Of a DNA stretch of 64,000 nt, positions 3,893 through 25,058 are shown in pieces. A program made the position numbers and the translations under genes. The stretch lies in the IMG/VR virus record IMGVR_UViG_3300004481_000333, positions 1 through 64,000 of that record; one strand, given 5' to 3'. Origin of the DNA: a virus. The notes under the pieces are model-generated. The model searched no databases. It worked only from the letters and a program-made list of their open reading frames with translations, and was not told the origin of the DNA. Each line of letters starts with the position of its first letter. Positions within the stretch are counted from its first letter, which is position 1.

Positions 3893-4737
3893 TGGCAAAG
3901 ACCACCATCGCCTGGACCGACTACAGCTGGCCCGTGATCAATGGGTGCCACAGGGTCAGCTTGGGGTGTTCGCAATGCTACGCCGAGCGTCTGACCGCTA
4001 CGCGGCTCCGGCACGTGCCGCGATACCAAGGTCTCGCGGAGTGGCGCAACGGGTACCCGCACTGGACGGGTGAGAGCAGACTGGACCGCGACGAGCTGTA
4101 CAAGCCGTTTCGCTGGAAGCGGCACAGACGTGTGTTCGTCTGCCAGATGGGTGACCTGTTCTACGAACGAAACACGGACGAACAGATTGTTGAGGTGTTC
4201 GGCGTCATGGCGGCATGTCAACAGCACCAGTTTCAGGTGCTGACGAAGCGGCCGGAACGTGCACTGGATGTGTTGACGACCACCCAATTCGCGGCGCAGG
4301 AAATCGACTTCGCTGACAACCTAGTTTGGGACAAACTCACGTGGGTTTGGCCCCTGCCAAACGTCCACATGCTGACGTCTGTCGAGCATCAGGCAACGCT
4401 GGAACCGCGCATGAAGGCACTGGTACGGCTCCCAGCGGTCATGCGGGGACTGAGCGTCGAGCCCATGCTGGGTCCGGTGGATCTTGAAGCGGTGTCTCCT
4501 CCCATGCTCGATCTCCTGGGTTGGATCATCATCGGGTGCGAGAGTGGTCCGGGGCGCCGGCCATGTCGGATCGAATGGGTAAAGGCGCTGGTCGAGCAAT
4601 GCAGGCGGCATCGGATTCCGTGCTTCGTCAAGCAGCTGGATTTGGACGGCCGTGTCTCGCATGACCCAGCCGAGTGGCCAAAGTGGGCCCGAGTGCGGGA
4701 GATGCCTAGACCGATCGAAGGGAGATGGAACCGATGA
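3892..4737 (+). CDS. DUF5131 (phage Gp37/Gp68) family protein
   Basis: TTIAWTD.SW..INGCHRVSLGCSQCYAE, VFVCQMGDLF, FQVLTKRP, LSVEPMLGPVDL, WIIIGCESG, FVKQL. Confidence 0.9.
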   Translation: MAKTTIAWTDYSWPVINGCHRVSLGCSQCYAERLTATRLRHVPRYQGLAEWRNGYPHWTGESRLDRDELYKPFRWKRHRRVFVCQMGDLFYERNTDEQIVEVFGVMAACQQHQFQVLTKRPERALDVLTTTQFAAQEIDFADNLVWDKLTWVWPLPNVHMLTSVEHQATLEPRMKALVRLPAVMRGLSVEPMLGPVDLEAVSPPMLDLLGWIIIGCESGPGRRPCRIEWVKALVEQCRRHRIPCFVKQLDLDGRVSHDPAEWPKWARVREMPRPIEGRWNR

Positions 4738-5034: not shown

Positions 5035-5613
5035 ATGATCCAAAACTCCCATATCACGCGCCACCTACTCAAGCTTCGCATCATCGCCCTAGACCCGGGA
5101 CTAGGTCAGGCTCGCCCCGGCTACGGCACGGGTGTCGTGATTCTGGAGTGCGGCAACGACGCGCCGCGGTGGGTTTGCCTGCACTCCGAGCTCCTGGAGA
5201 ACCGAACGGACCGCATGACCGACAGCGAGATCGCGTGGTACACTGCCGTCAGTATCAGCTGGATCGCGGCGACATGGTCGCCTCTGGACCTCGGAGTGCT
5301 TGAGACCGTGGAGTACCAGGGGGCCAAGCGGGCACAGCAGACCATCCGGCTCTCGCTCCTGGTGGGGGAAGTTCGGCACGCGCTGACGCTTGCTATCGGG
5401 GATCGTACCTGCATCGTGGAGCCTCGACGTACCCAGGTCATGAGGCACCTCGGAGTTCCGCGTGCCGACCAAGCGGAACGGTTCGTGCGCCGCCTAGTGA
5501 AGGGCGTGGGACCAAGCGAGCATGAGGCATCGGCAGCAGCGGCTGGCTTAGTTGGGTTCGAGATGTGGAGACGGCTGCAGGTCAAGGCAACCGCACGAAA
5601 GACGAAGACGTGA
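5035..5613 (+). CDS. RuvC-like Holliday junction resolvase
   Basis: RIIALDPG...GTGVV, GVLE, PRRTQV and HEASAAAAG RNase H-fold motifs. Confidence 0.7.
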   Translation: MIQNSHITRHLLKLRIIALDPGLGQARPGYGTGVVILECGNDAPRWVCLHSELLENRTDRMTDSEIAWYTAVSISWIAATWSPLDLGVLETVEYQGAKRAQQTIRLSLLVGEVRHALTLAIGDRTCIVEPRRTQVMRHLGVPRADQAERFVRRLVKGVGPSEHEASAAAAGLVGFEMWRRLQVKATARKTKT

Positions 5614-6696: not shown

Positions 6697-7325
6697 ACCA
6701 TCACCTTCACCGCTGGTTCTCCCAGGTCAGGGTCTTCCTGGACACCTTGCCCGAAGGCGCCACCACGACCGACGTCGCACGCGCGCTGGATCCGAACCCC
6801 GACACGTGGGCGTGCTCCCAGGCGCGTCTGTCGAACGCGAGCAAGGACGGGGATCTGTCGGTGCATGGAATTTCGCGCCTTCACTTCCGGTCCGACCACC
6901 CGCGCGGAACCTACGTCTACTACACCCGAGAGCACGCAGAACGGGTCGCATCATCGGTCCGGACGTGCCAAGCGTGTGGCATCATGCAACCGGTCTTGAC
7001 CTTTTCAGTCACGCACCGGGGCACTACCGAACTTAGCCAGGTCTGCAATGCCTGCCGGGACGCTGGCCACATGAAGACCAAGCGAGTGGTAGACGCGGAA
7101 CGAAAGCGAATGTGGCGTCTGATCCACCAATCCGAGAGGGCGAGGGGAACGGGTGCCAGAACGGGACAGGAGTACGAGACCCCTCGGCGCCGGGTCAAGG
7201 TCTGCAAGACCTGCTGGAACGCGCCATGGCGGCTCAGGGAGCCGTGCCCAACGTGTGGCGCCAAGCCACGACTCGAGGCGGTCGCGAAGAACTACGCCCC
7301 GACTGGGGTACAGTGGGACTTCTGA
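6693..7325 (+). CDS. Zn-finger protein
   Basis: four CxxC pairs (CQAC, CNAC, CKTC, CPTC). Confidence 0.6.
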   Translation: MNHHLHRWFSQVRVFLDTLPEGATTTDVARALDPNPDTWACSQARLSNASKDGDLSVHGISRLHFRSDHPRGTYVYYTREHAERVASSVRTCQACGIMQPVLTFSVTHRGTTELSQVCNACRDAGHMKTKRVVDAERKRMWRLIHQSERARGTGARTGQEYETPRRRVKVCKTCWNAPWRLREPCPTCGAKPRLEAVAKNYAPTGVQWDF

Positions 7326-16260: not shown

Positions 16261-17211
16261 ATGGCAACAATCGACCAAGTATCAGCGCTGATCTCGGCCC
16301 ACTGCCGCAGGGATGAGGACAGATTTCGGAGCACTGTCCAACAGATTAGGTCCAGCCATGCGTCGCGCAAAGAATGGAGCGCTGCGAGTGCGATCGAGCG
16401 GGCCTATTCGTTTGATACCATGGACACACAGAATCCAGTGTCCGTGCCTCACGAAGTCCGGGGGATGCTGGCCCTTCGGGAACGACGAGTGGTAGCCAGC
16501 GACATGGTGCTGGACAGGGAACTTGAGAACCAGTTCACCCAGATCGTGACGGAGCACAAGGAGAAAGCAAAGCTGCGAGAGCACGACCTGGAACCCATGC
16601 GGAGGGTCCTTATGGCGGGTCCTCCTGGGACTGGCAAGACCATGGCGGCCAGCAGACTTGCTGGCGAGCTCGGACTACCGCTCTATTTCACCAACCTGCA
16701 CAGCATAATCGGAAGTCTGCTAGGAGAGACTGCGGGCAGACTTGGTAAACTGTTCGAGTGGATCCGAACCGCGCAAGCTGTAGTGTTGTTCGATGAGTGT
16801 GACACGCTTGGCAGCAAGAGAGAACCTGGGTCGAGTAACGCACAGGGGGAGATGAACCGCGTCATGGCCAGCCTGTTGACCTTTCTGGAAAGCGATGTTG
16901 GAGACTGCGTGGTACTTTGCGCGACAAACATGCCTGAGGCGCTGGACCCGGCATTCGTGCGGAGGTTCGACGCTTACCTCGAGTTCAGAATGCCGACTTA
17001 CGAACAAGGCTTCCGGCTTATTCACAAAACGTTGGAGAAATTCGATTTCGAGCCCATCACATACGAGCTACCTGAGTTGAGCCACCATGATCTGGTAGAG
17101 GCGGCGCGGTGGGCCGCGAAGAGGGCGTTGTTGGCAGGGATGCCGGTTCTCTCGGACCATCTAAAGGAGGGGTTGATGCGACGCGAGAGACTGGGACGGA
17201 GGGAGCCATGA
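16261..17211 (+). CDS. AAA+ ATPase
   Basis: GPPGTGKT, VVLFDECD, ATN..LDPAFVRRFD. Confidence 0.9.
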   Translation: MATIDQVSALISAHCRRDEDRFRSTVQQIRSSHASRKEWSAASAIERAYSFDTMDTQNPVSVPHEVRGMLALRERRVVASDMVLDRELENQFTQIVTEHKEKAKLREHDLEPMRRVLMAGPPGTGKTMAASRLAGELGLPLYFTNLHSIIGSLLGETAGRLGKLFEWIRTAQAVVLFDECDTLGSKREPGSSNAQGEMNRVMASLLTFLESDVGDCVVLCATNMPEALDPAFVRRFDAYLEFRMPTYEQGFRLIHKTLEKFDFEPITYELPELSHHDLVEAARWAAKRALLAGMPVLSDHLKEGLMRRERLGRREP

Positions 17212-17873
17212 AACACCGCCCCATGATCTTCAGCGGCCAGAACCCCCTGCTGGTCCGATCTGGAAAGAAGACCAGGACGAGCCGCATGATGAAGCCTCAG
17301 CCCGGCGGATGGGAGAAGCATTGGGAGTGGAAAGGCCACAATCTGTGCTCACCAGCTGGGAAGGAGTGGCTTCTGGCGCTGGCGCCCCACGGACAGCCCG
17401 GGGATCTCCTTTGGGTCAAGGAGGAGTTCCAGCTGATGGACCTGGAGGACGGCAAGCAATGGACCAAGTCAAGATACTTGAACGACGCACGTGGCGAGGT
17501 GGAGGTTCTGTACAGAGCGGGTTGCCTCGATTGCGATGACGAGCGAGTAGGCACATGGAAGCCAGCTTTCTTGATGCCCCGCTGGGCCAGCCGAACTCAG
17601 CTGGAGATCACGGACGTTGACGTCCAGTGCATTCAGGATATCACGGAAGAAGACTGCTTGGCTGAAGGAATCATCAGGACCAAGTTCCCGTTCAGCGACC
17701 CCGGCAACGATTTCTGTTACACGATGGGGCCTTGGACTGTTGACGCTGCTCGATGGAGCCACTCAGCAAAGGCGTGCTTTGAAAACGCCTGGGAGGCGAT
17801 GCACGGAAAGGGGTCGTGGAACAAGTCGTGCTGGGTCTGGGTCTACCGTTTCCGTCGCGTGGAGGGGCCATGA
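17208..17873 (+). CDS. ASCH/PUA-like phage protein
   Basis: RPMIFS...SGKKTRTSR, GQPGDLLWVKE, WKPAFLMPRWASR.LEITDV...IQDITEED.LAEG, WVWVYRF. Confidence 0.8.
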   Translation: MKHRPMIFSGQNPLLVRSGKKTRTSRMMKPQPGGWEKHWEWKGHNLCSPAGKEWLLALAPHGQPGDLLWVKEEFQLMDLEDGKQWTKSRYLNDARGEVEVLYRAGCLDCDDERVGTWKPAFLMPRWASRTQLEITDVDVQCIQDITEEDCLAEGIIRTKFPFSDPGNDFCYTMGPWTVDAARWSHSAKACFENAWEAMHGKGSWNKSCWVWVYRFRRVEGP

Positions 17874-18331
17874 TTGCGCTTTCGATTCGCCGCCCGTGGC
17901 CATGGGCGATCCTGCATCTGCCACGCGAGATCGCGAAGGACATCGAGAACCGCGACTGGCCCACCAGTTTTCGCGGCAAGTTCTTGGTCCACGCTTCCAA
18001 GGGATGCACCAAGTGGGACTACACGACCGGTGCGATCTGCATTGAAGACGCAATTGAACAGCTGGTTCCTATGGAGACGGAGACTTGTACAACGCTTCAG
18101 GGGCTTGGATTCCAAGAGTTGAAAGACATGCCCGCTGGCGCGATCGTCGGATGGGCCGAGATCACGGATTGCGTTGAGACGTCGAATTCACCGTGGTTCA
18201 GTGGACGATACGGATTCGTGCTGGGACGTCGGGGAGTGCTGCAGCCCATCCCGTGCAAGGGACAACTTGGGTTCTTCCGCGTGCCGGAGGACGTGGCTCA
18301 AGCGGTTAGAGAGCAGGCCATCCGTGGATGA
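17870..18331 (+). CDS. ASCH domain protein
   Basis: ALSIRRPWPWAI...KDIENRDW...RGKFLVHASK...GAIVG...CKGQLGFF. Confidence 0.9.
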   Translation: MIALSIRRPWPWAILHLPREIAKDIENRDWPTSFRGKFLVHASKGCTKWDYTTGAICIEDAIEQLVPMETETCTTLQGLGFQELKDMPAGAIVGWAEITDCVETSNSPWFSGRYGFVLGRRGVLQPIPCKGQLGFFRVPEDVAQAVREQAIRG

Positions 18332-18674
18332 CAAGCGCGCTTTGGGACCCGAGATGCTGGCCGAAGGCTGGCGCGTGCTGGGTAGCGACGACATCGTTTG
18401 GTTCCATTCACCATCCGGGATAGCTGTCACGGTCACCCAGGCACAACGGCGCCAATGTCTGCTTCCTGTCCAGGGGGATGAGACCCCGAATCCCAAGACG
18501 CTAGGCTACGCTGTTCTGTGCCGGGAGTCAGGAGATGGCTTCTGGGTCCAATACTACGGAGTTGCGGTCAGGCGTGCACGTGAGATCCGGGCATCAATTC
18601 TGCGGGACCACGTGATGACCGAGACGGCTAAAGGAGGGGTTGATGCGACGCGAGAGACTGGGACGGAGCCATGA
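18324..18674 (+). CDS. hypothetical protein
   Basis: overlapping ORF whose 3' end is formed by the duplicated 41-bp sequence. Confidence 0.5.
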   Translation: MDDKRALGPEMLAEGWRVLGSDDIVWFHSPSGIAVTVTQAQRRQCLLPVQGDETPNPKTLGYAVLCRESGDGFWVQYYGVAVRRAREIRASILRDHVMTETAKGGVDATRETGTEP

Positions 18675-18692
18675 AAAACGGAGGAAGAGCAG

Positions 18693-19499
18693 ATGTTCAG
18701 CGTGACAGAGAAGGCGTTGATCGAAGCAGTTCAAACGAGATTGCGAGAGCCAAATGACGACAAAGGAGCAGAGATGCCCAAGGACGAGAAAGTGAATCCA
18801 ACTACCGATACGGCGGCAACCACGTACAACGAACCACCACAGAATCTCGCTGCTGGACCATGGCGTGCATTCCCAGAGAATAAGCCGACGCTTGGTGGGC
18901 CAAAACTCGTGGCGGTGAGCCACGCAACGGCGTCCTCAGGGTTCAAGTTTTGGACCCTGAGAATGGCACGTTACGACAACATCGGAGAGGGGTGCCCACG
19001 ATGGTGGTGTGTAGTGACGGACATGCCGTTGAGTGTTTCTCACTACGCGGACTTGCGCGATCCAATAGTGTCCGACGCGCCTACTTCCGATCCGGATCTT
19101 CCCGCGATTCCGAGACTTGAGTGCCCATTGGAAGAGGCGTCTGTTGAGCCAGCGCTCGAGCCCAACCTCCACTGGTCGTTCAAGCGCACGCCGTGCGAGA
19201 CCGACCTGCGGAGAATCCTGCGGGAGTCCGAGGAGGCGGGGGCAAGGGCGATTGGGATTCGACTGTGCGGGCAGGCGATCGTGGGACTGAGAAAGAAGGC
19301 TCTGGAGGCAGCTGCGGGACTCAGCTTGATGAACTCCCTGGGTGTGATGGGCCAAAGAGGTTTACTGTCATGCGGCTCACTAGAATGGATGCTTATGTGG
19401 GTCTCGGGAGACCCCGCAGAGGCAGCCAAGGCGGCGTTGGCCGAACTGGACGCCTGGGCTGGCAAGCGGCACCGCACGACCGTGGCGGTGTTCAAATGA
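18693..19499 (+). CDS. hypothetical protein
   Basis: 268 aa, GGAGG SD. Confidence 0.6.
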   Translation: MFSVTEKALIEAVQTRLREPNDDKGAEMPKDEKVNPTTDTAATTYNEPPQNLAAGPWRAFPENKPTLGGPKLVAVSHATASSGFKFWTLRMARYDNIGEGCPRWWCVVTDMPLSVSHYADLRDPIVSDAPTSDPDLPAIPRLECPLEEASVEPALEPNLHWSFKRTPCETDLRRILRESEEAGARAIGIRLCGQAIVGLRKKALEAAAGLSLMNSLGVMGQRGLLSCGSLEWMLMWVSGDPAEAAKAALAELDAWAGKRHRTTVAVFK

Positions 19500-19630
19500 G
19501 CCTCTCGGACGAGAAACGGAGGTATCTTGAGAGCCTGTCGCCAACGCAGGGATGCTTCGAGATCCAACGATGGGCCCACGCCGGCTGCACGGGAGTCGGG
19601 CGCGGGAGTTCTGCAGGGCAAAAAAAGTAG

Positions 19631-19659
19631 TTGACAGCGTCCATCGTATGATGCATGAT
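19631..19659 (+). promoter_or_regulatory. sigma70-type promoter
   Basis: TTGACA-N17-CATGAT preceded by an A-tract (UP-like). Confidence 0.75.
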
Positions 19660-19686
19660 GCACCGTAGTCCAGGAAGGTAACTGCT

Positions 19687-19845
19687 ATGACCGATCAGGA
19701 CGCCAGAAGGCTAGCTGCTGAATCGCGGTGTGATCTTAGGACCGTGCGCTCCATGCTGGTCGACCCGGCAAGCGTGCGTCCGGTCAGCAGGACACGCATC
19801 GAGGAAGCAGCCAAGAGGTTGAAGATCAAACTTCCAAGAGCGTAG
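19687..19845 (+). CDS. small LacI-type HTH regulator (52 aa)
   Basis: MTDQDARRLAAESRCDLRTVRSMLVDPASVRPVSRTRIEEAAKRL resembles the LacI headpiece; AGGAAGG SD; below the ORF-track cutoff. Confidence 0.7.
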   Translation: MTDQDARRLAAESRCDLRTVRSMLVDPASVRPVSRTRIEEAAKRLKIKLPRA

Positions 19846-19848
19846 CAA

Positions 19849-21660
19849 ATGGTCAAAGCAAAAACAGTTCAGCGTTCCGGCCAGGGTCGTCGCAGGAAGG
19901 GCGACCTCCACTCGCCCAAAGGCGAGGCCAAAGTGCACTCAGCCAATACTGAGCTCAAGCGCTCAGTACCTCTGCATCCCGGCGACCTTGGCTCGAGCGC
20001 TGAACCGAAGAGACCGAAGTCTCTCGGCTCAAAAGAGTTGGACGAGGCGCGCGATTGGCTGATCGCGGAGCTCTCTTCCATGGGGGTAGCGAAGCCGGTA
20101 GTGTTCCGAGGCCGGAAGGGACACGGAGTAGAGGTCAAGGACGGACGTCGAAAGTTGGGTGGAATTGACAACGCCGACTTGATTACGCGCAACGTTCATG
20201 CCGTAGAGGACTTGTTTCGGCTGCATGGGTCGGTTACGATAGAAATCGACCCGAAGGCAGCGCACGCGCACAAAGACATCCTGTTCGGAGTGTGTAGAGC
20301 CCTCGTTGCGGGCCAGCGGGCAGTGATGCGGGCTCTGTACCGTGGAGAGCACGACACTCCGGCGGCACGGGACCCCGACTTCGTCGCCTATTGCGCACTA
20401 AGCAAGAACAAGGTCGACCAACTGATCGCCAAAGGTGGTACCCTCCTGTCGAACAGCTACGCCTATCCGATTCTGCGGTACGCAGCATCGCAATGGCTCG
20501 CCAATTCAAAGACAGAAGTAGAGCGCAATCTCAGCGTTGCCAGCAACCAGATAGGGTCCGCGTCGAAGAATGCTGAGCGAAAGTGGCGCGATTGGATGGG
20601 GCACCAGGACGAGCAGTCTCTTCCGAGATTCACCACGCCATCATGCGAGGTCGACGCCGACCAGTACAAGCTAACGATGAAGGGTCGAGAGCTGTCGGTA
20701 GCTCTCAAGATTCAGGGAGCGGACGGCGGAAGAATACCTGTGATCGATCTCGATGCCTACGCTCGCGGTGGATCTGGATGGGCGGACCTGCGGCGCATCC
20801 TCTCGGGGGAATGGGAGCGCCGATCTGCACGGTTGGTGTGGGACGATGCCCGTAGGAGATGGCTCCTGAAAATCTCGGTCATGAAACCCAGACCGGAGTT
20901 GAAGCATGGGGTAGGTGCCATGGTCGTGTGTCCGGGCGTGGACTCACTTGTGCGCGTATGGGGAAGCAACGGATGGCGCGGTCCGGCCGATGACACCGCC
21001 AGCATCATCGCGCGCAAACTCAGGATCGATTCCAGGAAGTCACAACTCGGGCAGCACAAGGATTTCCAGGGTCATGGGGCACGCGGACATGGCCGCGGTA
21101 GGTTCACCAAGCTTCTGCGGAGATTTGGTGATGCGGAAGCGAGATTCGACAAAACGCATATCCAGCAAGGCGCGGCCCGCGTGGTACAACTGGCGCTCGG
21201 ACAACGTCTTGGAAAGAATGGGTGGTCCGAGCGAGAAGGTTCGGTGGGTGAGGTTCTGGTCAACAGTTTTGGATCATTTTGCCCGACGCATCCGGACCGT
21301 CGCATCGAGCGAGTGCTCCGACGATTCCCCATCTGTGCCCAACGGGACGCGATTTGCTGGGCTCTACGCAAGGCTGGAATCCCTCATCGGGTTGTCAAGA
21401 GCGCGAATCTTTGCCCCGCGTGCGGAGAGGCTAAGGTTGTCCACTACAGCGGCATGGATTGGTGCTGCCCCAAGTGCCACCTGCGCGCGCCCCGAGACCT
21501 ATGGACCGCATGGCAGACGTTCATTGCCGGAGGTGATAGCCAACACTACGACCTTTCCGAAGTCGGAAAGGAGTTCCGAGAAGCGGCAGAATATGCGGAA
21601 TCGATCCGCAGGAAGGCAGAACAGAATGGATCCGAAGAAACTGAAGAAGCTGCTCAATGA
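19849..21660 (+). CDS. TnpB/Cas12f-like RNA-guided protein, predicted RuvC-inactive
   Basis: WLLKIS..KP then RuvC-I AMVVCPG (Asp->Cys); GHGARGHGRGR Cas12f-like segment; RuvC-II VLVNSFG (Glu->Asn); KAGIP.RVV; CPAC/CPKC Zn ribbon; RuvC-III RDL; adjacent mini-array. True start may lie downstream of 19849. Confidence 0.8.
   Translation: MVKAKTVQRSGQGRRRKGDLHSPKGEAKVHSANTELKRSVPLHPGDLGSSAEPKRPKSLGSKELDEARDWLIAELSSMGVAKPVVFRGRKGHGVEVKDGRRKLGGIDNADLITRNVHAVEDLFRLHGSVTIEIDPKAAHAHKDILFGVCRALVAGQRAVMRALYRGEHDTPAARDPDFVAYCALSKNKVDQLIAKGGTLLSNSYAYPILRYAASQWLANSKTEVERNLSVASNQIGSASKNAERKWRDWMGHQDEQSLPRFTTPSCEVDADQYKLTMKGRELSVALKIQGADGGRIPVIDLDAYARGGSGWADLRRILSGEWERRSARLVWDDARRRWLLKISVMKPRPELKHGVGAMVVCPGVDSLVRVWGSNGWRGPADDTASIIARKLRIDSRKSQLGQHKDFQGHGARGHGRGRFTKLLRRFGDAEARFDKTHIQQGAARVVQLALGQRLGKNGWSEREGSVGEVLVNSFGSFCPTHPDRRIERVLRRFPICAQRDAICWALRKAGIPHRVVKSANLCPACGEAKVVHYSGMDWCCPKCHLRAPRDLWTAWQTFIAGGDSQHYDLSEVGKEFREAAEYAESIRRKAEQNGSEETEEAAQ
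19867..20027 (+). ncRNA. putative tracrRNA-like scaffold overlapping the 5' end of the Cas12f-like ORF
   Basis: CTCCACT (19906-19912) and CCTCTGCATCC (19969-19979) are complementary to two parts of the array repeat; long stem 19867-19892/19980-20005 and terminal hairpin 20005-20027. Confidence 0.65.
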
Positions 21661-22363
21661 GGCTGGAATCTGCTTCACCCAGTGGAACGACTGGGAACTA
21701 GTACAGCGCGAACTCTCGAAGCTCAGGGTTGCGCGCGACAAGGCTGAAGCACACTACTGCCTGTTTCTGTGTGGCGTCGAGGCCTGCTCGGCGGAGTGGC
21801 GTAGCGGGCTCGATTCGAAGGAACCGCAGACATTCGACCATTGGCTGCGCAAGCAGTCTCTGCATGATGACCCGGCGCGCTACCGGGCTATGCTGATCGC
21901 TCTCGAAACCAAGGGGCTTGAGTGGGTGCAACGAGTCGGACCGATTGCGATCGCGACGGTCGTAAAGAATCTTCCATCAGAACTTCGGGACGAAGGATTC
22001 AGGCGTCTTGCGGACAAGAGAGCTGACGTCGGGCAACCGGTATCGTCTAAGATCGGTCCGGCGGTTGTGGCGGCCGTCAAAGCGGCGCACCAGGACATCT
22101 GCCCTCCCATGCCGAGACATCCGAAGCTCGTGAAGTTGGGTGCCAAGCTGCAGACGTCGAGGGGTCAAGTGAAGTCGCTGGAGGATGAGCTCAAGGAAGC
22201 TAGGTCTACCATTGCGGAGCGAGACCGGACGATCGAACGGCTCATGGCTGAGAATTCCGAGCTTCGCGAGCGGCTCGGTGCTGCGCAAACCGCGCTAGGC
22301 GCTCGCACGCAGAAACCTCGAAAAACAGTGGGGACGCAGCAACCGGCGATGCCGGCCGAGTAG
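21626..22363 (+). CDS. coiled-coil accessory protein coupled to the Cas12f-like gene
   Basis: 245 aa from ATG 21626, overlaps the upstream stop; C-terminal heptads VKSLEDELKEARSTIAERDRTIERLMAENSELRERL. Confidence 0.7.
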   Translation: MDPKKLKKLLNEAGICFTQWNDWELVQRELSKLRVARDKAEAHYCLFLCGVEACSAEWRSGLDSKEPQTFDHWLRKQSLHDDPARYRAMLIALETKGLEWVQRVGPIAIATVVKNLPSELRDEGFRRLADKRADVGQPVSSKIGPAVVAAVKAAHQDICPPMPRHPKLVKLGAKLQTSRGQVKSLEDELKEARSTIAERDRTIERLMAENSELRERLGAAQTALGARTQKPRKTVGTQQPAMPAE

Positions 22364-22439
22364 AAGCAATGGAGATGGCGAAGACCCGCTCGCAAAGTAC
22401 AGCGCAAGGTAGCAGGATCGTGGAGGTCCTAGCTGGCGG

Positions 22440-22646
22440 GTCAGGACAGCTGAAAGGATGCGGAGGAAGTGGAGCATGACCATCACGCACGCACGGGCCC
22501 GGGACATTCTGGTCGCTGTGGGCAACAGGATGCAGAGGAAGTGGAGCCGATCGAGCGCGGTCCTGCGGGTCACTTCACCTCGGCGTCGCTGTGGGCAACA
22601 GGATGCAGAGGAAGTGGAGCTAAGGCCTGGCAGGCAACCAAAGAAC
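22440..22646 (+). CRISPR. mini CRISPR array: 3 repeat units, 36-bp repeat
   Basis: GTCGCTGTGGGCAACAGGATGCAGAGGAAGTGGAGC identical at 22512-22547 and 22585-22620; 5'-degenerate copy at 22440-22475; unique spacers of 36 and 37 bp plus a third segment after repeat 3. Confidence 0.85.
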
Positions 22647-22675
22647 GGCCCCCATGGAACAACGCCACGGGGGCC
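22647..22675 (+). terminator. hairpin closing the array
   Basis: GGCCCCCATGG...CCACGGGGGCC stem; no U-tract. Confidence 0.45.
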
Positions 22676-22904
22676 AGGCATCATTACCTCGATCTGAGGC
22701 TCCCTTCGGCTCTCGCCGACGTGCTTGGGATTAGGTAGGAGAAGACTAGCACGCCAGCGAGGTCGTTGACCAGCCGGCGCATTCGTGCCAGAACGAATAA
22801 GCCCCGCCGACCGAGAATCGACGGGGCTCTGGAAGGATCGAGACCTGCTACATCAGGAGTAGCAGGATGGCAGTCTTCGGTCAACCAGGTCCACTGGGGG
22901 CAGC

Positions 22905-24125
22905 GTGAGTCGGTGGTGCAGAGCCGAAAAGGCCGAGCGTTCCCGGGTGAGGGAGCGGGGTCCACGGCAGCCTGAACATCCACCAGACTTCCCCGAAACC
23001 GAGCGTTTCGCTCTCGAGCGGGTCTTCAGCTGGCTTTGCTGGGTCTCGTCGTCGCCTGCGGGATCGATGCTGGGTCGTCAAGAGCTTTTCGGGCTGCCGA
23101 TCCGAGAATGCCAGCGGTGTAGGGGCACGGGGCTGGTTCAGCGCCAGCCACGCCGGGAGCCCCGGTTCGCGGAGTTCGCGATCCTACTGGGCTGCTTGGA
23201 GGAGGAGGCGAGGCAGCGGTGGGAGGCGCTTCAGGCCCAGATCGAGCCAGAACTGGGGGACAAGCAATGCCCGAGATGTCGAGGAAGCGGAAGGACGCAG
23301 GCCAGGATCGGGGCGAAGCCCATCGGTACCTGGTATCAATCTCCGTCGATTGAGTGCCCCGCAGGCGTCCGGAACTGCTCGGGTCAGGCCCCATGGTCAG
23401 AAGAGGTCGTGTGCGCATCGGGGCATCCAGACGCTCGCGACTGGTATGAGCCCAACCCTGAGAGCTATGCCTACATTGGGGCACAACTGTCCAGGTTGCT
23501 GCTGGTAGAGCGCCGGCACGGAGCTAGGTCCGTGAGTGTGCTGCAGATCTGGTACGGCCCGGACGCGCGACGGTATGACCCCGAGGAGGTCCCGATCCCG
23601 ACCGACGATGCTTTGCGCGTGCTTGAGCTTGCGCATCAAGAGGGCGCGTTGGTGCTGGACGTCGAGACCGAAGAGGACGTTCCGGCTGAGATCGCGAAGC
23701 GACTCAAGTCCTACAACGAGGAGTGGCGGGACCGGCACGAGGCGGAACGTAATGGTAGCGCGATTGCGCCGTACTCCATGGGCGCGTTTGAGATCTCGGC
23801 TCTGCTGCGTCCCAAGCGGATCCAGCGATCCGAAGAGCTGGGGCGTCAGGCACAGCTGGTCCAGATCTGGCCCGCGACCGCGACGGGGCGCAAGGCGCTT
23901 CGTGGCATGTCGGACATCGAGAATTTGCGTTCCACCATTGAGACCAAGCGGGGTGGACACCGAAAGGTCGCTCAGCTGGACCGGGAGGCGGAGAAGCTGT
24001 TGAGTCGAGCGCAGCGGTATTGGTGCGCGACCAAGCGGGTATCACCGACTCTCATCGTCGTGGCGGACTGGAGGGCAACCGCCGAGGTTCTGGTGAAGGA
24101 AATCCTTGCCCGGAGGGCGGCGTGA
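22905..24125 (+). CDS. Zn-finger protein, possible antiterminator/late regulator
   Basis: two DnaJ/Q-type motifs, CQRCRGTG and CPRCRGSG; position near the end of the early/middle operon. Confidence 0.55.
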   Translation: MSRWCRAEKAERSRVRERGPRQPEHPPDFPETERFALERVFSWLCWVSSSPAGSMLGRQELFGLPIRECQRCRGTGLVQRQPRREPRFAEFAILLGCLEEEARQRWEALQAQIEPELGDKQCPRCRGSGRTQARIGAKPIGTWYQSPSIECPAGVRNCSGQAPWSEEVVCASGHPDARDWYEPNPESYAYIGAQLSRLLLVERRHGARSVSVLQIWYGPDARRYDPEEVPIPTDDALRVLELAHQEGALVLDVETEEDVPAEIAKRLKSYNEEWRDRHEAERNGSAIAPYSMGAFEISALLRPKRIQRSEELGRQAQLVQIWPATATGRKALRGMSDIENLRSTIETKRGGHRKVAQLDREAEKLLSRAQRYWCATKRVSPTLIVVADWRATAEVLVKEILARRAA

Positions 24126-24568
24126 TGGAGCGCAGATGGCTAAGGCTGCGGGAAGCTGCGGAACGGCTCGAGATGGGGCGCGACCGGAACGCGGCGCGCA
24201 AACTCGAACTCGACCTCATGGATGTCCAGAAACGGACCGGGGTCACGATGCTTCGCAGGAAGGGTCCCGGTAGCGCGATCCTAGTGGACTGGGATCGAGC
24301 GGAGGGACACCTGGCGCGTCGGAAAGCCACGGCGGATCAGTACCAGGATTGGCACGACGAGCTCTGCCGGCTCGCGGCCGAGATGGCGGATCAACGCGAC
24401 AACGTGAACGTGCAGCCCCAGATTGACCGGATCAATGGGCGTCTGGACCGACTTGGCTGTCAAATCGATACCGTCCAGGAGGATGCGCGCCGGCGCGATT
24501 CCGCCATGCTGGCCATGCTGACCCAGCTGGTGGCCAAGATGGGGGAGCTGGCGCGAGATCCTACGTGA
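24125..24568 (+). CDS. HTH (excisionase-like) plus coiled-coil protein
   Basis: WLRLREAAERLEM N-terminus; coiled-coil C-terminus. Confidence 0.55.
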   Translation: MERRWLRLREAAERLEMGRDRNAARKLELDLMDVQKRTGVTMLRRKGPGSAILVDWDRAEGHLARRKATADQYQDWHDELCRLAAEMADQRDNVNVQPQIDRINGRLDRLGCQIDTVQEDARRRDSAMLAMLTQLVAKMGELARDPT

Positions 24569-25058
24569 TCGCAAGGCTAGACAGGACCTCGTCTGCTGGG
24601 CTGTACGTGTAGTCTCCCCTCCGAGCTTTGCGCCAGCGTTCGAGTTCGCTGGTCCAGACGGCCTCTCCGTCATTGGACCACGCGTTCGACTGGCCGTCGA
24701 AGGGTCGGAACAAGTGAACGACGTCGATTCCGCGCTTCAGAAGCGGGACCGCGATCAGGGAGTAGCGATGACAGTCTGTCGGGTTTTCTTCCTGACACAT
24801 CAGGATGACGTGACCAGGATGGTTCTCGAGCCATGCGAGTCCCGCGGTCGTGACGGAAAAGGGAGGCTTGTTTCCCAGCGTTTCTCCGCGCCAAACGTAC
24901 CTACGTCCCAGTAGGGTCGTGAGGTCGTCGCGTGAGAACCCGCGCTTTACGCGCCCAGAGGGGCGCGCTCGAACGTCAACCAAGAGGGAGCTCGTCCGGT
25001 CCACGAGGGCGAAAAGCTGGCTAGTTGCGAGGTGCTGGTATCCGACGCTTAGGTACAT
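24561..25058 (-). CDS. DUF488 family protein
   Basis: SVGY...LVDVR..P...F...YVWRGETLG...LMCQEENPTDCHR.LIA. Confidence 0.85.
   Translation of the reverse strand: MYLSVGYQHLATSQLFALVDRTSSLLVDVRARPSGRVKRGFSRDDLTTLLGRRYVWRGETLGNKPPFSVTTAGLAWLENHPGHVILMCQEENPTDCHRYSLIAVPLLKRGIDVVHLFRPFDGQSNAWSNDGEAVWTSELERWRKARRGDYTYSPADEVLSSLAIT

Follow-up and report, generated by a model that had tools for sequence, protein, structure and literature searches.

The operon and its Cas12f-like effector

The window, by which we mean the whole 64,000-nucleotide stretch of viral DNA that was analyzed, contains a Cas12f-like gene followed by an accessory gene and a CRISPR array, all read from the plus strand. Between 19400 and 23000, a sigma-70-like promoter was recognized on this strand at one site only (19631-19659; TTGACA-17-CATGAT, 10/12 matches). 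It is followed by a 52-codon open reading frame (19687-19845, plus strand), whose stop codon lies 3 nt ahead of ATG 19849, the first codon of the effector ORF (P0001, 603 residues; 19849-21660, plus strand). The 52-codon frame matched no family above the cut-off (the Pfam match to SBDS_domain_II, at E 5e-4, fell below it) and is not present in the six related loci L001, L002, L004, L005, L130 and L131. The structured RNA described below occupies 19867-20005 on the plus strand. No terminator-like site was found on this strand before 23000, so that no intrinsic terminator lies 3' of the RNA, and processing of the RNA must therefore be assumed.

A conserved accessory gene (ORF2; 21626-22363, plus strand) begins inside the effector gene, with which it shares 35 nt, and encodes 245 residues with a helical N-terminal domain and a long coiled coil. 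The gene also lies 3' of the effector gene in L001, L002, L004, L130 and L131, the proteins of which align with that of the window, and in L005, where it is known from DNA reading only. Pfam gave coiled-coil matches only and no family for the accessory protein, and no fold match was obtained at E ≤ 0.001. Downstream of these genes are an array leader (22364-22439, plus strand), in which the motif CGCTCGCA (22387-22394) is invariant in four loci and which holds a repeat-like piece, AGGATCGTGGAGG, and a mini CRISPR array of three repeats (22440-22620, plus strand), 2.5 kb from the RNA. The repeat, GTCGCTGTGGGCAACAGGATGCAGAGGAAGTGGAGC, is found at 22512-22547 and 22585-22620, and a degenerate copy retaining the 3' 21 nt is found at 22440-22475; the two spacers (22476-22511 and 22548-22584) have no second match within the window. 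One DNA sequencing run contained 8% of the words and gave three short contigs, at 19621-19857, 20772-20970 and 21491-21676, all outside the RNA.

The initial annotation called the effector Cas12f-like, and this assignment was borne out by profile and fold searches. The family profile search matched Cas12f1 (9i8y, E 1.4e-32) and AsCas12f (E 4e-30), Foldseek matched AsCas12f (8j12, E 1e-18, TM 0.68-0.73), and PADLOC returned Cas12f and Cas12u3 at 1.4e-6. The protein has the sequence features and the fold (WED, REC, RuvC and zinc-finger TNB) of Cas12f, a fold that it shares with the type V-F effectors (Cas12f/Cas14), and zinc-finger cysteines C522, C525, C540 and C543 are invariant. The RuvC D-E-D triad is not intact; the position of the RuvC-I aspartate is occupied by C in the window and by R in the family consensus, and that of the RuvC-II glutamate by N in the window. 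With the RuvC-I aspartate missing, the effector is probably a DNA binder rather than a nuclease, as judged from its sequence. About 200 cluster representatives belong to the effector family at E ≤ 1e-30.

A structured RNA complementary to the CRISPR repeat

As the initial annotation noted, the first part of the effector ORF is dense in stems. The minimum free energy (MFE) of 19860-20035 is −89.0 kcal/mol, compared with a mean of −54.8 (sd 4.0) for shuffled sequences (z = −8.6; 0/200 as stable), and every stem listed in the initial annotation is present in this fold. Nucleotides 19867-19892 pair with 19980-20005 to form a closing stem, inside which are three hairpins and an unpaired junction, all on the plus strand. 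Hairpin 1 (19899-19917; GGGCGA/TCGCCC) has the loop CTCCACT at 19906-19912, hairpin 2 (19921-19944) carries the motif AAGGCGAGG, which is kept in every locus having the RNA, and hairpin 3 (19947-19968) is formed by TACTGAGC and GCTCAGTA. The junction, CCTCTGCATCC (19969-19979), follows hairpin 3 and has 8 of its 11 nt unpaired in the MFE fold. A small hairpin, AGAGAC-CGAA-GTCTCT (20011-20026, plus strand), is located 3' of the closing stem and codes for part of the conserved peptide PKSLGS; L005 has another hairpin at this position, and the KSLGS peptide is retained there despite three synonymous changes. A search of 18500-24000 with Rfam covariance models at E ≤ 10 gave three unrelated weak matches, none of which falls in 19860-20035.

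Three segments of this region had been proposed to pair with the repeat, and the strings CCTCTGCATCC, CTCCACT and CGGCGAC (19980-19986) were all confirmed at their positions. The junction is an 11-nt complement of repeat nucleotides 17-27, and the hairpin-1 loop pairs with repeat nucleotides 29-35 (AGTGGAG) in a predicted pseudoknot-type duplex of 7 nt. The third segment is able to form 7 bp with GTCGCTG at the 5' end of the repeat, including one G-U pair, but in the fold it makes up the 3' side of the closing stem, and neither L005 nor L001 has an equivalent; CGGCGAC is not conserved, and the contact is bipartite rather than three-part. Within 17000-25000 of the window, no complement to the repeat exceeds the junction in length. 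An 11-nt match to the RNA at 19867-20005 was reached by shuffled repeats in 4/2000 trials, and when junction and loop were scored jointly for the window, the observed value was reached by 0/1000 shuffled repeats. Duplex energies calculated with RNAduplex discriminated poorly: across four loci, shuffled repeats did as well in 12, 60, 0 and 122 of 200 cases, which was weakly significant in the window (12/200) and not significant in L005 (60/200) or L002 (122/200). Helix-length tests limited to the expected segments were used in their place. Type V crRNAs retain about 20 nt of the repeat, and the two predicted contacts jointly span this part. Counting against a role of the junction in guide formation, it sits within a multiloop that is shut by the long stem, and the fold prediction places 3 of the 11 junction nucleotides in pairs.

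The covariation analysis across homologous loci that had been suggested as a check was carried out with seven loci for which DNA was compared (the window, L001, L002, L004, L005, L130 and L131, representing about six lineages), and in all seven the pairing is conserved and co-varies with the repeat. The window and four of the loci are viral records. The same RNA architecture is found at the 5' end of the related Cas12f-like genes in all six other loci, with fold z-scores of −6.3 in L005, −8.9 in L001, −5.65 in L002 and −7.84 in L004; the sequences of the closing stems are unrelated between loci. A consensus structure of five sequences has 47 pairs, 23 of which are changed on both sides, compared with 2-7 such pairs when partners were slid by 1-3 columns, and 87.8% of cells are paired, compared with 30-41% in the slid controls; the observed values were reached in 0/500 shuffles, the consensus structure and the pair counts having been drawn from one and the same MAFFT alignment. 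Hairpin 3 (helix 4 of the consensus) is paired in 100% of cells, with two-sided changes in four of its eight pairs, and hairpin 1 shows a compensatory change to GGGTGA/TCACCC in L005.

The contacts with the repeat are likewise retained while their sequences differ (GGATGCAGAGG, CTGGTGCAGGC, GACCAGTG, GGTGTGGA, TTTGGCGGATG and GAGTAGGTGGGG). In each of the seven loci, 8-12 bp join the junction to repeat nucleotides −8 to −19, numbered back from the 3' end, and a second duplex joins the hairpin-1 loop or region to the final 5-10 nucleotides. The L130 RNA forms 10 + 10 bp with its repeat through a sequence that differs from that of the window, and changes in its loop are matched by changes at the repeat end (10 bp), as is also the case in L131 (7 bp); the L131 junction, which was located by eye, scored 11.5. 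The contacts in L002 and L004 are short, with 8 bp for the junction and 5-6 bp for the loop. A matrix of own versus foreign repeats for the seven loci was dominated by its diagonal, the best repeat for each RNA being its own or that of a sister locus, and the observed pairing score was reached by 0/1000 shuffled repeats in five loci, 9/1000 in L002 and 15/1000 in L004.

Between the window and L005, nucleotide identity is 86% in 19867-20005 and about 58% in the remaining gene, and the synonymous difference is 0.23 in codons 6-53 as against 0.77 elsewhere in the gene, a threefold suppression that, judged by this comparison, points to RNA-level selection. A scan for the motif CCACTCNCCNAARGGNGAGG returned 11 viral and 108 genome stretches; among the matches listed (97 of the 108 in the genome set), no fetched stretch encodes a relative by tblastn, except for L010 and L016, which are second copies of the two L005/L006 contigs. 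No further relatives were found in the genome-contig scan (query A1) or the viral scan (query A9).

Translation of the RNA region and alternative explanations

The RNA falls within the gene's first 160 bases, and this DNA thus appears to be used twice, for a helper RNA and for coding protein. The reading frames suggest that in the window's clade the RNA is also translated, seemingly as an N-terminal tail for which disorder is predicted (codons 1-53). The cas12 frame is open across the RNA in five of the seven loci, the other frames having 0-5 stops, and a peptide motif in the same frame, L..P.GE...SA, was found in 13 of the best 30 family representatives, compared with 0/153 in a control window. 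Differences between the window and L005 in codons 54-63 are distributed over the three codon positions as 2, 1 and 6, mostly third, and no in-frame ATG or GTG was found in L005 between the structure and the conserved helix. An ATG is present at the 5' border of the RNA in six of the seven loci, and is preceded by a strong Shine-Dalgarno sequence in L130 (AAAGGAG) and L004. Arguing against dual coding, the RNA lies outside the cas12 ORF in L002, where the frame is closed by a TAA 8 nt 5' of a separate cas12 ATG with its own GGAG, and in L131, where stops occur inside the RNA; L001 has GGAGG and an ATG 3' of the RNA, and ATG 19849 in the window is without a good Shine-Dalgarno site. The initial annotation had offered dual coding or a protein start near 20038-20080. 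The former is better supported in the window's clade; the internal starts (TTG 20038 and ATG 20080) are not conserved and were dropped. GTG 19933, which matches an ATG in L005 (both after GAGG), was also rejected as a start, P0002, P0003 and L001 having K, G and K there.

We consider it likely that 19867-20005 is a tracrRNA-like scaffold for a nuclease-dead Cas12f-like effector, that it pairs with the repeat at two sites, and that it is also translated in the window's clade. The promoter at 19631 would drive transcription of both the effector gene and this RNA of about 140 nt, whose long closing stem would gather the three hairpins. The hairpin-1 loop would bind the last 7 nt of the repeat, adjoining the spacer, and the unpaired junction, 5' of the closing-stem 3' arm, would bind the 11 repeat nucleotides just upstream. 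The effector may bind the resulting dual RNA and then DNA, without cutting it. Ribosomes in the window's clade would read the same bases from ATG 19849 as the disordered tail, and the RNA would lie in the untranslated leader in other lineages. The RNA would probably be freed by RNase III cutting within the closing stem, which has at least 20 bp, and on any one transcript such release and translation would be mutually exclusive. A more far-reaching proposal, that dual use is obligate throughout the phage-borne family, is tentative, and we regard it as somewhat doubtful. According to this proposal, one primary transcript would be both the translated N-terminus of the dead effector and the tracrRNA, and a cut by host RNase III would free the tracrRNA and remove the start codon, so that each transcript would give either helper RNA or protein; pairing with a repeat on the same polycistronic transcript would be a possible trigger.

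The element could instead be a cis-regulatory leader of the mRNA and not a guide component, tuning translation or stability to the crRNA supply through repeat pairing or effector binding, with a crRNA that needs no tracrRNA. The RNA is continuous with the mRNA, no terminator lying between them, the ATG at its border would suit a leader, and the closing stem contains or adjoins this ATG in L004 and L001. There are precedents for RNA-based autoregulation of Cas expression, CreR reportedly being one of them. However, the bipartite geometry, with a loop and a 3' segment, copies the tracrRNA-repeat contacts of Cas12f, the pairing spans exactly that part of the repeat which type V crRNA retains, and no internal hairpin was seen when the repeat was read by eye; moreover, the solved Cas12f relatives use a tracrRNA, according to the available text of PMC8053092. 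We find a solely cis-regulatory role unlikely, and regulation in cis and service as a guide scaffold are mutually compatible.

It is very improbable that the true tracrRNA is encoded elsewhere, on the minus strand of the trailer (22621-22893) or antisense to the repeat-like leader, with the 5' element being unrelated to guides. Both strands of the trailer fold well (z −5.8 and −5.6), its minus strand has terminator-like hairpins at 22646-22676 and 22799-22829, and the leader carries the repeat-like piece AGGATCGTGGAGG. The trailer, however, has no complement of at least 8 nt to the repeat and fails to align with the trailers of L001 or L002, and it was rejected as the tracrRNA. In L005, in L131 and with the first repeat of the window, the duplex at the junction is kept on the plus strand by G-U pairs (10.5-11.5) but broken on the minus strand (6), and repeat decay, which in L002, L130 and L131 affects the array end distant from cas12, puts the leader on the cas12 side. 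Folding energy left the strand unsettled, the minus strand being as good or better in L005, L002 and L131. That the region does nothing but code for a conserved N-terminal peptide (G.L..P.GE...SA), with fold and complementarity as GC-rich, low-complexity by-products, would accord with the in-frame motif and the open frames but is scarcely credible, in that the RNA is outside the cas12 frame in L002 and L131 and its core motif AAGGCGAGG is in another codon frame in L004, the closing stems vary in sequence yet stay paired, the anti-repeat co-varies with the repeat, synonymous change is suppressed, and the peptide is predicted to be disordered.

Relation to known systems and implications

The predicted tracrRNA-type geometry, with a loop contacting the spacer-side end of the repeat and a single-stranded segment contacting it further upstream, agrees with that of Cas12f as far as it is set out in the available text of PMC8053092. 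In Un1Cas12f, whose tracrRNA measures 140 nt, AR:R 1 involves the loop of stem 3 and AR:R 2 involves the tracrRNA 3' end, and the sgRNA of this type V-F system resembles the window RNA in having multiple stems, a length of about 140 nt, and a loop and a near-3' segment that pair with the spacer-side and the upstream repeat, respectively (PMC8053092). Unlike that of Un1Cas12f1, the putative tracrRNA of the window lies on the same strand within its effector's own 5' ORF or leader, and the long closing stem brackets its entire length. The window effector is also without the RuvC-I aspartate, and the operon includes the conserved coiled-coil gene. Pseudoknots with repeat 3' ends are described as general for Cas12 tracrRNAs in the accessible portion of a preprint (bioRxiv 10.1101/2025.01.20.633832). 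The same source describes Cas12p ("Cas12 hacker"), which is similar in being a phage-borne miniature Cas12 (500-700 residues) with a long tracrRNA, the 5' part of which is pseudoknotted with the repeat 3' end. Cas12p, however, is nuclease-active and depends on host thioredoxin, its fold match to the window effector is weaker (9jfs, E 7e-10), and an overlap of tracrRNA and ORF is not described in that portion of the preprint (bioRxiv 10.1101/2025.01.20.633832).

The dCas12f linked to sigma-E and the array-linked dCas12f cluster are, like the window effector, Cas12f-derived, inactive and presumed RNA-guided DNA binders with a partner protein, as described in the available sections of PMC13472631. 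Foldseek matched the window effector to dCas12f (9n9c) at E 1.7e-13, but in profile comparison 9n9c scores weakly (E 9e-5) next to active Cas12f1 (1e-32), and neither Pfam nor a fold search identified the window partner as a sigma factor. In addition, the dCas12f-sigma-E system is described in those sections as using a single guide and no tracrRNA (PMC13472631), whereas a separate anti-repeat RNA and a CRISPR array are indicated in the window. The V-U24 group (Altae-Tran et al. 2023) has a non-canonical RuvC-I and an associated HTH protein, and the window family, with its replaced RuvC-I aspartate and constant helical partner gene, may correspond to it; the accessible text does not mention a tracrRNA in the effector 5' end (PMC10691335). 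The window partner is helical and no HTH was recognized in it by Pfam or fold search. VIPR systems were set aside, since they have GGYNN repeat arrays and a different protein.

The omega-RNA (reRNA) of TnpB provides another case in which a guide scaffold shares DNA with the ORF of its RNA-guided protein. It overlaps the 3' end of the tnpB ORF and carries the guide itself, whereas in the window it is the 5' end of the ORF that overlaps, and a separate array 2.5 kb away would supply the guide. Omega-RNA is placed downstream of tnpB in the available text of PMC10691335.

A tracrRNA embedded in the 5' coding region of its own effector would be a variation on the known tracrRNA theme, and this is probably what the window contains. 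A literature search, thin on subscription papers, found no description of a tracrRNA within the 5' coding region of an effector gene. tracrRNAs are usually sought in intergenic DNA adjoining the array, and automated prediction would miss the window RNA because gene callers annotate the region as the effector N-terminus. If the "ORF only" were cloned after recoding, the guide scaffold would be lost, and the two short contacts, provided that the pairing rules hold, would define compact guides for a small relative of Cas12f that binds DNA. The locus offers a testable case of RNA-structural and coding constraint acting on one sequence in a CRISPR effector gene, within a wider system in which a constant coiled-coil partner and an array accompany a nuclease-dead Cas12f-like protein. 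It also gives a hint of a built-in coupling between the supply of helper RNA and translation of the effector; if the obligate dual use is true, the ratio of RNA to protein would be set, and effector synthesis would be turned off after guide loading.

Predicted fold of the 5' region and pairing with the repeat

The Cas12f-like effector gene (19849-21660, 603 aa) lies in a viral record, 85,413 bases long and an estimated 78% complete, of which the window is a part. Because the only + strand sigma-70-like promoter found in a promoter scan (TTGACA-17-CATGAT) is at 19631-19659, and a terminator scan found no + strand terminator-like site before 23000, the unit looks, from its sequence, like one operon comprising a 52-codon ORF, the RNA and effector, a 245-aa coiled-coil gene (21626-22363), a leader and the CRISPR array. 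The array has three 36-nt repeats (22440-22475, 22512-22547 and 22585-22620), the first degenerate with its 3' 21 nt kept, and two spacers (22476-22511 and 22548-22584), neither of which has a second match within the window.

When folded as RNA, 19860-20035 reached -89.0 kcal/mol versus -54.8 +/- 4.0 for dinucleotide shuffles (z = -8.6), and 0 of 200 shuffles folded as well. The predicted fold contains a closing stem (19867-19892 with 19980-20005), hairpin 1 (GGGCGA/TCGCCC), the loop of which holds most of CTCCACT, hairpin 2 (19921-19944), hairpin 3 (TACTGAGC/GCTCAGTA), an unpaired junction containing the greater part of the anti-repeat, and a small hairpin (20011-20026); every stem listed for the region in the initial annotation is present in this fold.

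A word-based search for relatives of the effector returned the proteins P0002 to P0004 only, and a full profile search returned 2090 cluster representatives at E <= 1e-3, including 200 at E <= 1e-30. The related loci compared were L005/L006 (two viral contigs with the same effector, 55% identity), L001 (34% identity), L002 (25% identity, 23 repeats), L004, with a type II-like Cas1 after the partner gene, and the viral contigs L130 and L131; L003, a more distant relative with another gene order, had no comparable 5' RNA in the 300 upstream bases read. The homologous 5' regions gave fold z-scores of -6.3 (L005), -8.9 (L001), -5.65 (L002) and -7.84 (L004), those of L130 and L131 being folded without a z-score. 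A long closing stem, unrelated in sequence between loci, is formed in the window, L005, L001, L002, L004 and L130, and in these six it encloses the first hairpin, the AAGGCGAGG hairpin, usually a third hairpin, and then an unpaired stretch; L131, read by eye, has a short closing helix only. Covariation, which the initial annotation had suggested looking for across homologous loci, was evident in a five-sequence MAFFT alignment, where RNAalifold gave 47 pairs, 23 of which retain pairing through changes on both sides (2-7 in controls with partners slid by 1-3 columns), although the consensus structure was derived from the same alignment, of five sequences only, two of them close. The consensus structure had 87.8% of cells paired versus 30.0-41.1% in the slid controls, and 0 of 500 shuffles matched any of the five observed structure measures. 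A second copy of the hairpin 2 motif (AAAGCGAGG...CACTCGC) was seen in L131 at 3913-3940, approximately 150 nt downstream of the first and inside the effector ORF.

The anti-repeat, CCTCTGCATCC (19969-19979), matches repeat nucleotides 17-27 as a perfect complement and is the longest complement to the repeat within 17000-25000, and CTCCACT (19906-19912) is complementary to repeat nucleotides 29-35. Both contacts had been proposed in the initial annotation, the second as lying largely in the hairpin 1 loop, and these, like all the strings it quoted, were located where it had placed them. A third proposed pairing, of CGGCGAC with GTCGCTG, exists in the window but was dropped because CGGCGAC forms the closing stem's 3' arm and neither L005 nor L001 has a counterpart to it. 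The other two contacts are present in all seven loci, the junction being complementary to repeat nucleotides -8 to -19 from the repeat 3' end, and a segment in or at the hairpin 1 loop to the last 5-10 nucleotides. The junction and loop duplexes are 11 and 7 bp in the window and L001, 11 (one G-U) and 7 bp in L005, 8 and 5 bp in L002, 8 and 6 bp (one G-U in the latter) in L004, 10-11 and 10 bp in L130, and 12 (one G-U; read by eye, scored 11.5) and 7 bp in L131. The paired sequences differ between lineages, and therefore the RNA side and the repeat side have evolved in step. When the seven RNAs were each scored against the seven repeats, every RNA did best with its own or a sister-locus repeat; of 1000 shuffled repeats per locus, none matched the observed combined score in five loci, 9 did so in L002 and 15 in L004. 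In two weaker tests, the observed length of perfect Watson-Crick runs was matched in 4 (window), 460 (L005), 3 (L001), 70 (L002) and 179 (L004) of 2000 shuffles, and the RNAduplex energy by 12 (window), 60 (L005), 0 (L001) and 122 (L002) of 200 shuffled repeats. We conclude that this is a conserved RNA structure with two co-varying predicted contacts to the repeat.

A purely cis-regulatory leader is a less likely reading, although it would fit with the repeat pairing. The trailer at 22621-22893 could be proposed as the tracrRNA source, as both of its strands fold strongly (z about -5.7) and it ends in two terminator-like T-tract hairpins on the - strand (22646-22676 and 22799-22829), the next genes being apparently on the + strand; however, it contains no complement to the repeat of at least 8 nt and has no counterpart in L001 or L002.

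The complementarity alone would be equally valid with the - strand as the source of both RNAs. The RNA and the repeats share one transcript orientation, and several sequence features favour the + strand. G-U pairs preserve the + strand junction duplex in L005, L131 and the first repeat of the window (10.5-11.5 versus 6 on the - strand), the sole - strand gain being 1.5 at the L002 loop. Degenerate repeats are at the cas12-distal array end in L002, L130 and L131, and the contacted nucleotides fall within the part of the repeat retained in type V crRNA in the + orientation only. Promoter-like hexamers were seen by eye immediately upstream of the RNA in L004, L005 and L131, although a promoter scan of L005 gave no hit. 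Folding energies of the two strands do not decide the matter.

RNA constraint and the effector reading frame

The initial annotation had left open whether the RNA is dual-coding or the protein starts further downstream. Between the window and L005, nucleotide identity is approximately 86% in the RNA and 58% elsewhere. In codons 6-53, which cover the structure, the proportional synonymous difference is 0.23 versus 0.77 in the remaining 511 codons, and the non-synonymous difference 0.106 versus 0.308, with 4, 6 and 10 differences at the three codon positions versus 184, 135 and 324 in the rest. This pattern marks selection acting on the RNA as such. Translation of the core motif AAGGCGAGG gives K-G-E in the window and K-A-R in L004, and therefore the peptide is not what is conserved there.

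Translation through the RNA nevertheless seems real in the clade of the window. The differences from L005 in codons 54-63, just past the closing stem, number 2, 1 and 6, mostly third positions; KSLGS is retained despite three synonymous changes and differing local hairpins, and L005 lacks any in-frame ATG or GTG in the stretch from the structure to the conserved helix with which the folded protein begins. Five of the seven loci keep the cas12 frame open throughout the RNA (the other two frames carry 0-5 stops), and a strong Shine-Dalgarno sequence precedes the 5'-border ATG in L130 (AAAGGAG, 7 nt) and L004. Among the family representatives, the in-frame peptide motif [LP]..P.[GCA]E...S[AP] was found in 13 of the top 30, in 2 of the following 40 and in none of the final 83, and a control window gave 0 of 153. 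In contrast, the RNA of L002 is in a separate 51-codon frame closed by a TAA, 8 nt after which comes a cas12 ATG that has a GGAG of its own, that of L131 is upstream of the ORF and contains stops, and in L001 GGAGG and an ATG follow directly after the RNA, layouts that speak against an obligatory fusion of RNA and ORF. Of the two options, dual coding is the better supported for the window's clade. That the region merely encodes a conserved peptide is contradicted by L002 and L131, by the frame shift of the core motif in L004, and by the compensatory stems and co-varying anti-repeat. We read the RNA as the primary, ancient leader element, which in many lineages, including that of the window, the ORF traverses, yielding a disordered passenger tail.

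The effector and its neighbouring genes

In the AlphaFold model (mean pLDDT 75), effector residues 1-53 have pLDDT <50 and lack secondary structure, the fold beginning near residue 60. The effector alone matched AsCas12f (7wju) in PDB at E 2.8e-5, and the family profile matched Cas12f1 (9i8y, 1.4e-32), AsCas12f (4.3e-30) and Un1Cas12f (4.2e-20); the model matched AsCas12f with a Foldseek E of 1e-18 and TM 0.68-0.73. By profile and model, the effector has a Cas12f fold. The RuvC-I aspartate position is C in the window effector and, in the family alignments (A7 and A8), R in the consensus (VRR), and the RuvC-II glutamate position is N in the window effector. Since a RuvC residue is missing, the protein most likely binds DNA rather than cutting it. 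Many family members retain the RuvC-II 'VEDF' and a RuvC-III aspartate, the glutamate being also lost in the window's clade, as if the active site had decayed in steps.

The order effector, coiled-coil gene, array is kept in L001, L002, L130, L131 and L005 (the last from DNA read only), and in L004 with cas1 inserted. The partner gene is invariably 3' of the dead Cas12f-like gene, at 21626-22363 in the window, 2218-2883 in L001, 7125-7784 in L002, 3011-3604 in L004, 5235-5870 in L130 and 5701-6411 in L131, the six loci included in the protein alignment. Its product is helical with a C-terminal coiled coil of approximately 60 residues (model pLDDT 82); Pfam gave generic coiled-coil matches only, and PDB no fold match at E <= 0.001. 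As the effector does not seem to cut, its output may come from this protein. In L002, the start regions of effector and partner (5513-5560 and 7108-7155) are near-identical copies of about 45 nt reading GCGGAGTAA.CAAAATGTGCGC.ATGGCCCGACAA..., so that both proteins begin MCAMARQ; the duplication may match their expression.

A type II-like Cas1 (PADLOC Cas1_II, E 9.5e-81) is encoded between partner gene and array in L004 (3601-4605), and thus an adaptation gene is present in some family members; none was found in the stretches read of the phage copies. An invariant leader motif, CGCTCGCA (in the window and L002, ACCCGCTCGCAAAGT), is present in the window (22387-22394), L005, L001 and L002, approximately 50-65 nt upstream of the first repeat, with effectors only 25-55% identical; it may act as a promoter element for the array or be bound by a protein or an RNA. 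Second mini-arrays, each with three copies seen of a different 36-nt repeat, were observed in L001 (CRISPR-like, about 196-395, just upstream of the RNA/effector gene and flanked on both sides by the same sequence of about 35 nt) and at the very end of the window's own record (G000:C1, about 85248-85411; L127 1649-1812), distant from every cas gene found.

Comparison with Cas12f guide RNAs and a possible mode of release

The Un1Cas12f1 complex contains a 140-nt tracrRNA with four stems, in which the stem 3 loop forms duplex 1 with the repeat (AR:R 1) and the 3' end forms duplex 2 (AR:R 2) (PMC8053092). The window RNA is of the same size and is predicted to make the same two kinds of contact, and is therefore termed tracrRNA-like. 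That it is the tracrRNA, as inferred in the initial annotation, is probable, with the structure, two co-varying contacts and a Cas12f-like geometry in its favour. A preprint on phage Cas12p considers a pseudoknot with repeat 3' ends characteristic of Cas12 tracrRNAs (10.1101/2025.01.20.633832), and the 2025 classification notes repeated origins of tracrRNA, many in number, within type V (PMC12669027). The published natural dCas12f regulators differ in relying on single guides together with a sigma factor (PMC13472631). In the literature searched, no account was found of an effector gene whose 5' coding region contains its tracrRNA.

On a primary transcript from 19631, the effector message would start with the tracrRNA-like RNA, and the array may lie at the 3' end of that transcript. 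RNase III requires approximately two helical turns of duplex, and the closing stem (20 bp or more) would be a plausible site, cleavage of which would free the RNA to pair with the repeats and be bound by the effector. We speculate that cleavage would also strip ATG 19849 from the message, and therefore that tracrRNA release and translation of the effector would compete, which is the autoregulation suggested in the initial annotation.
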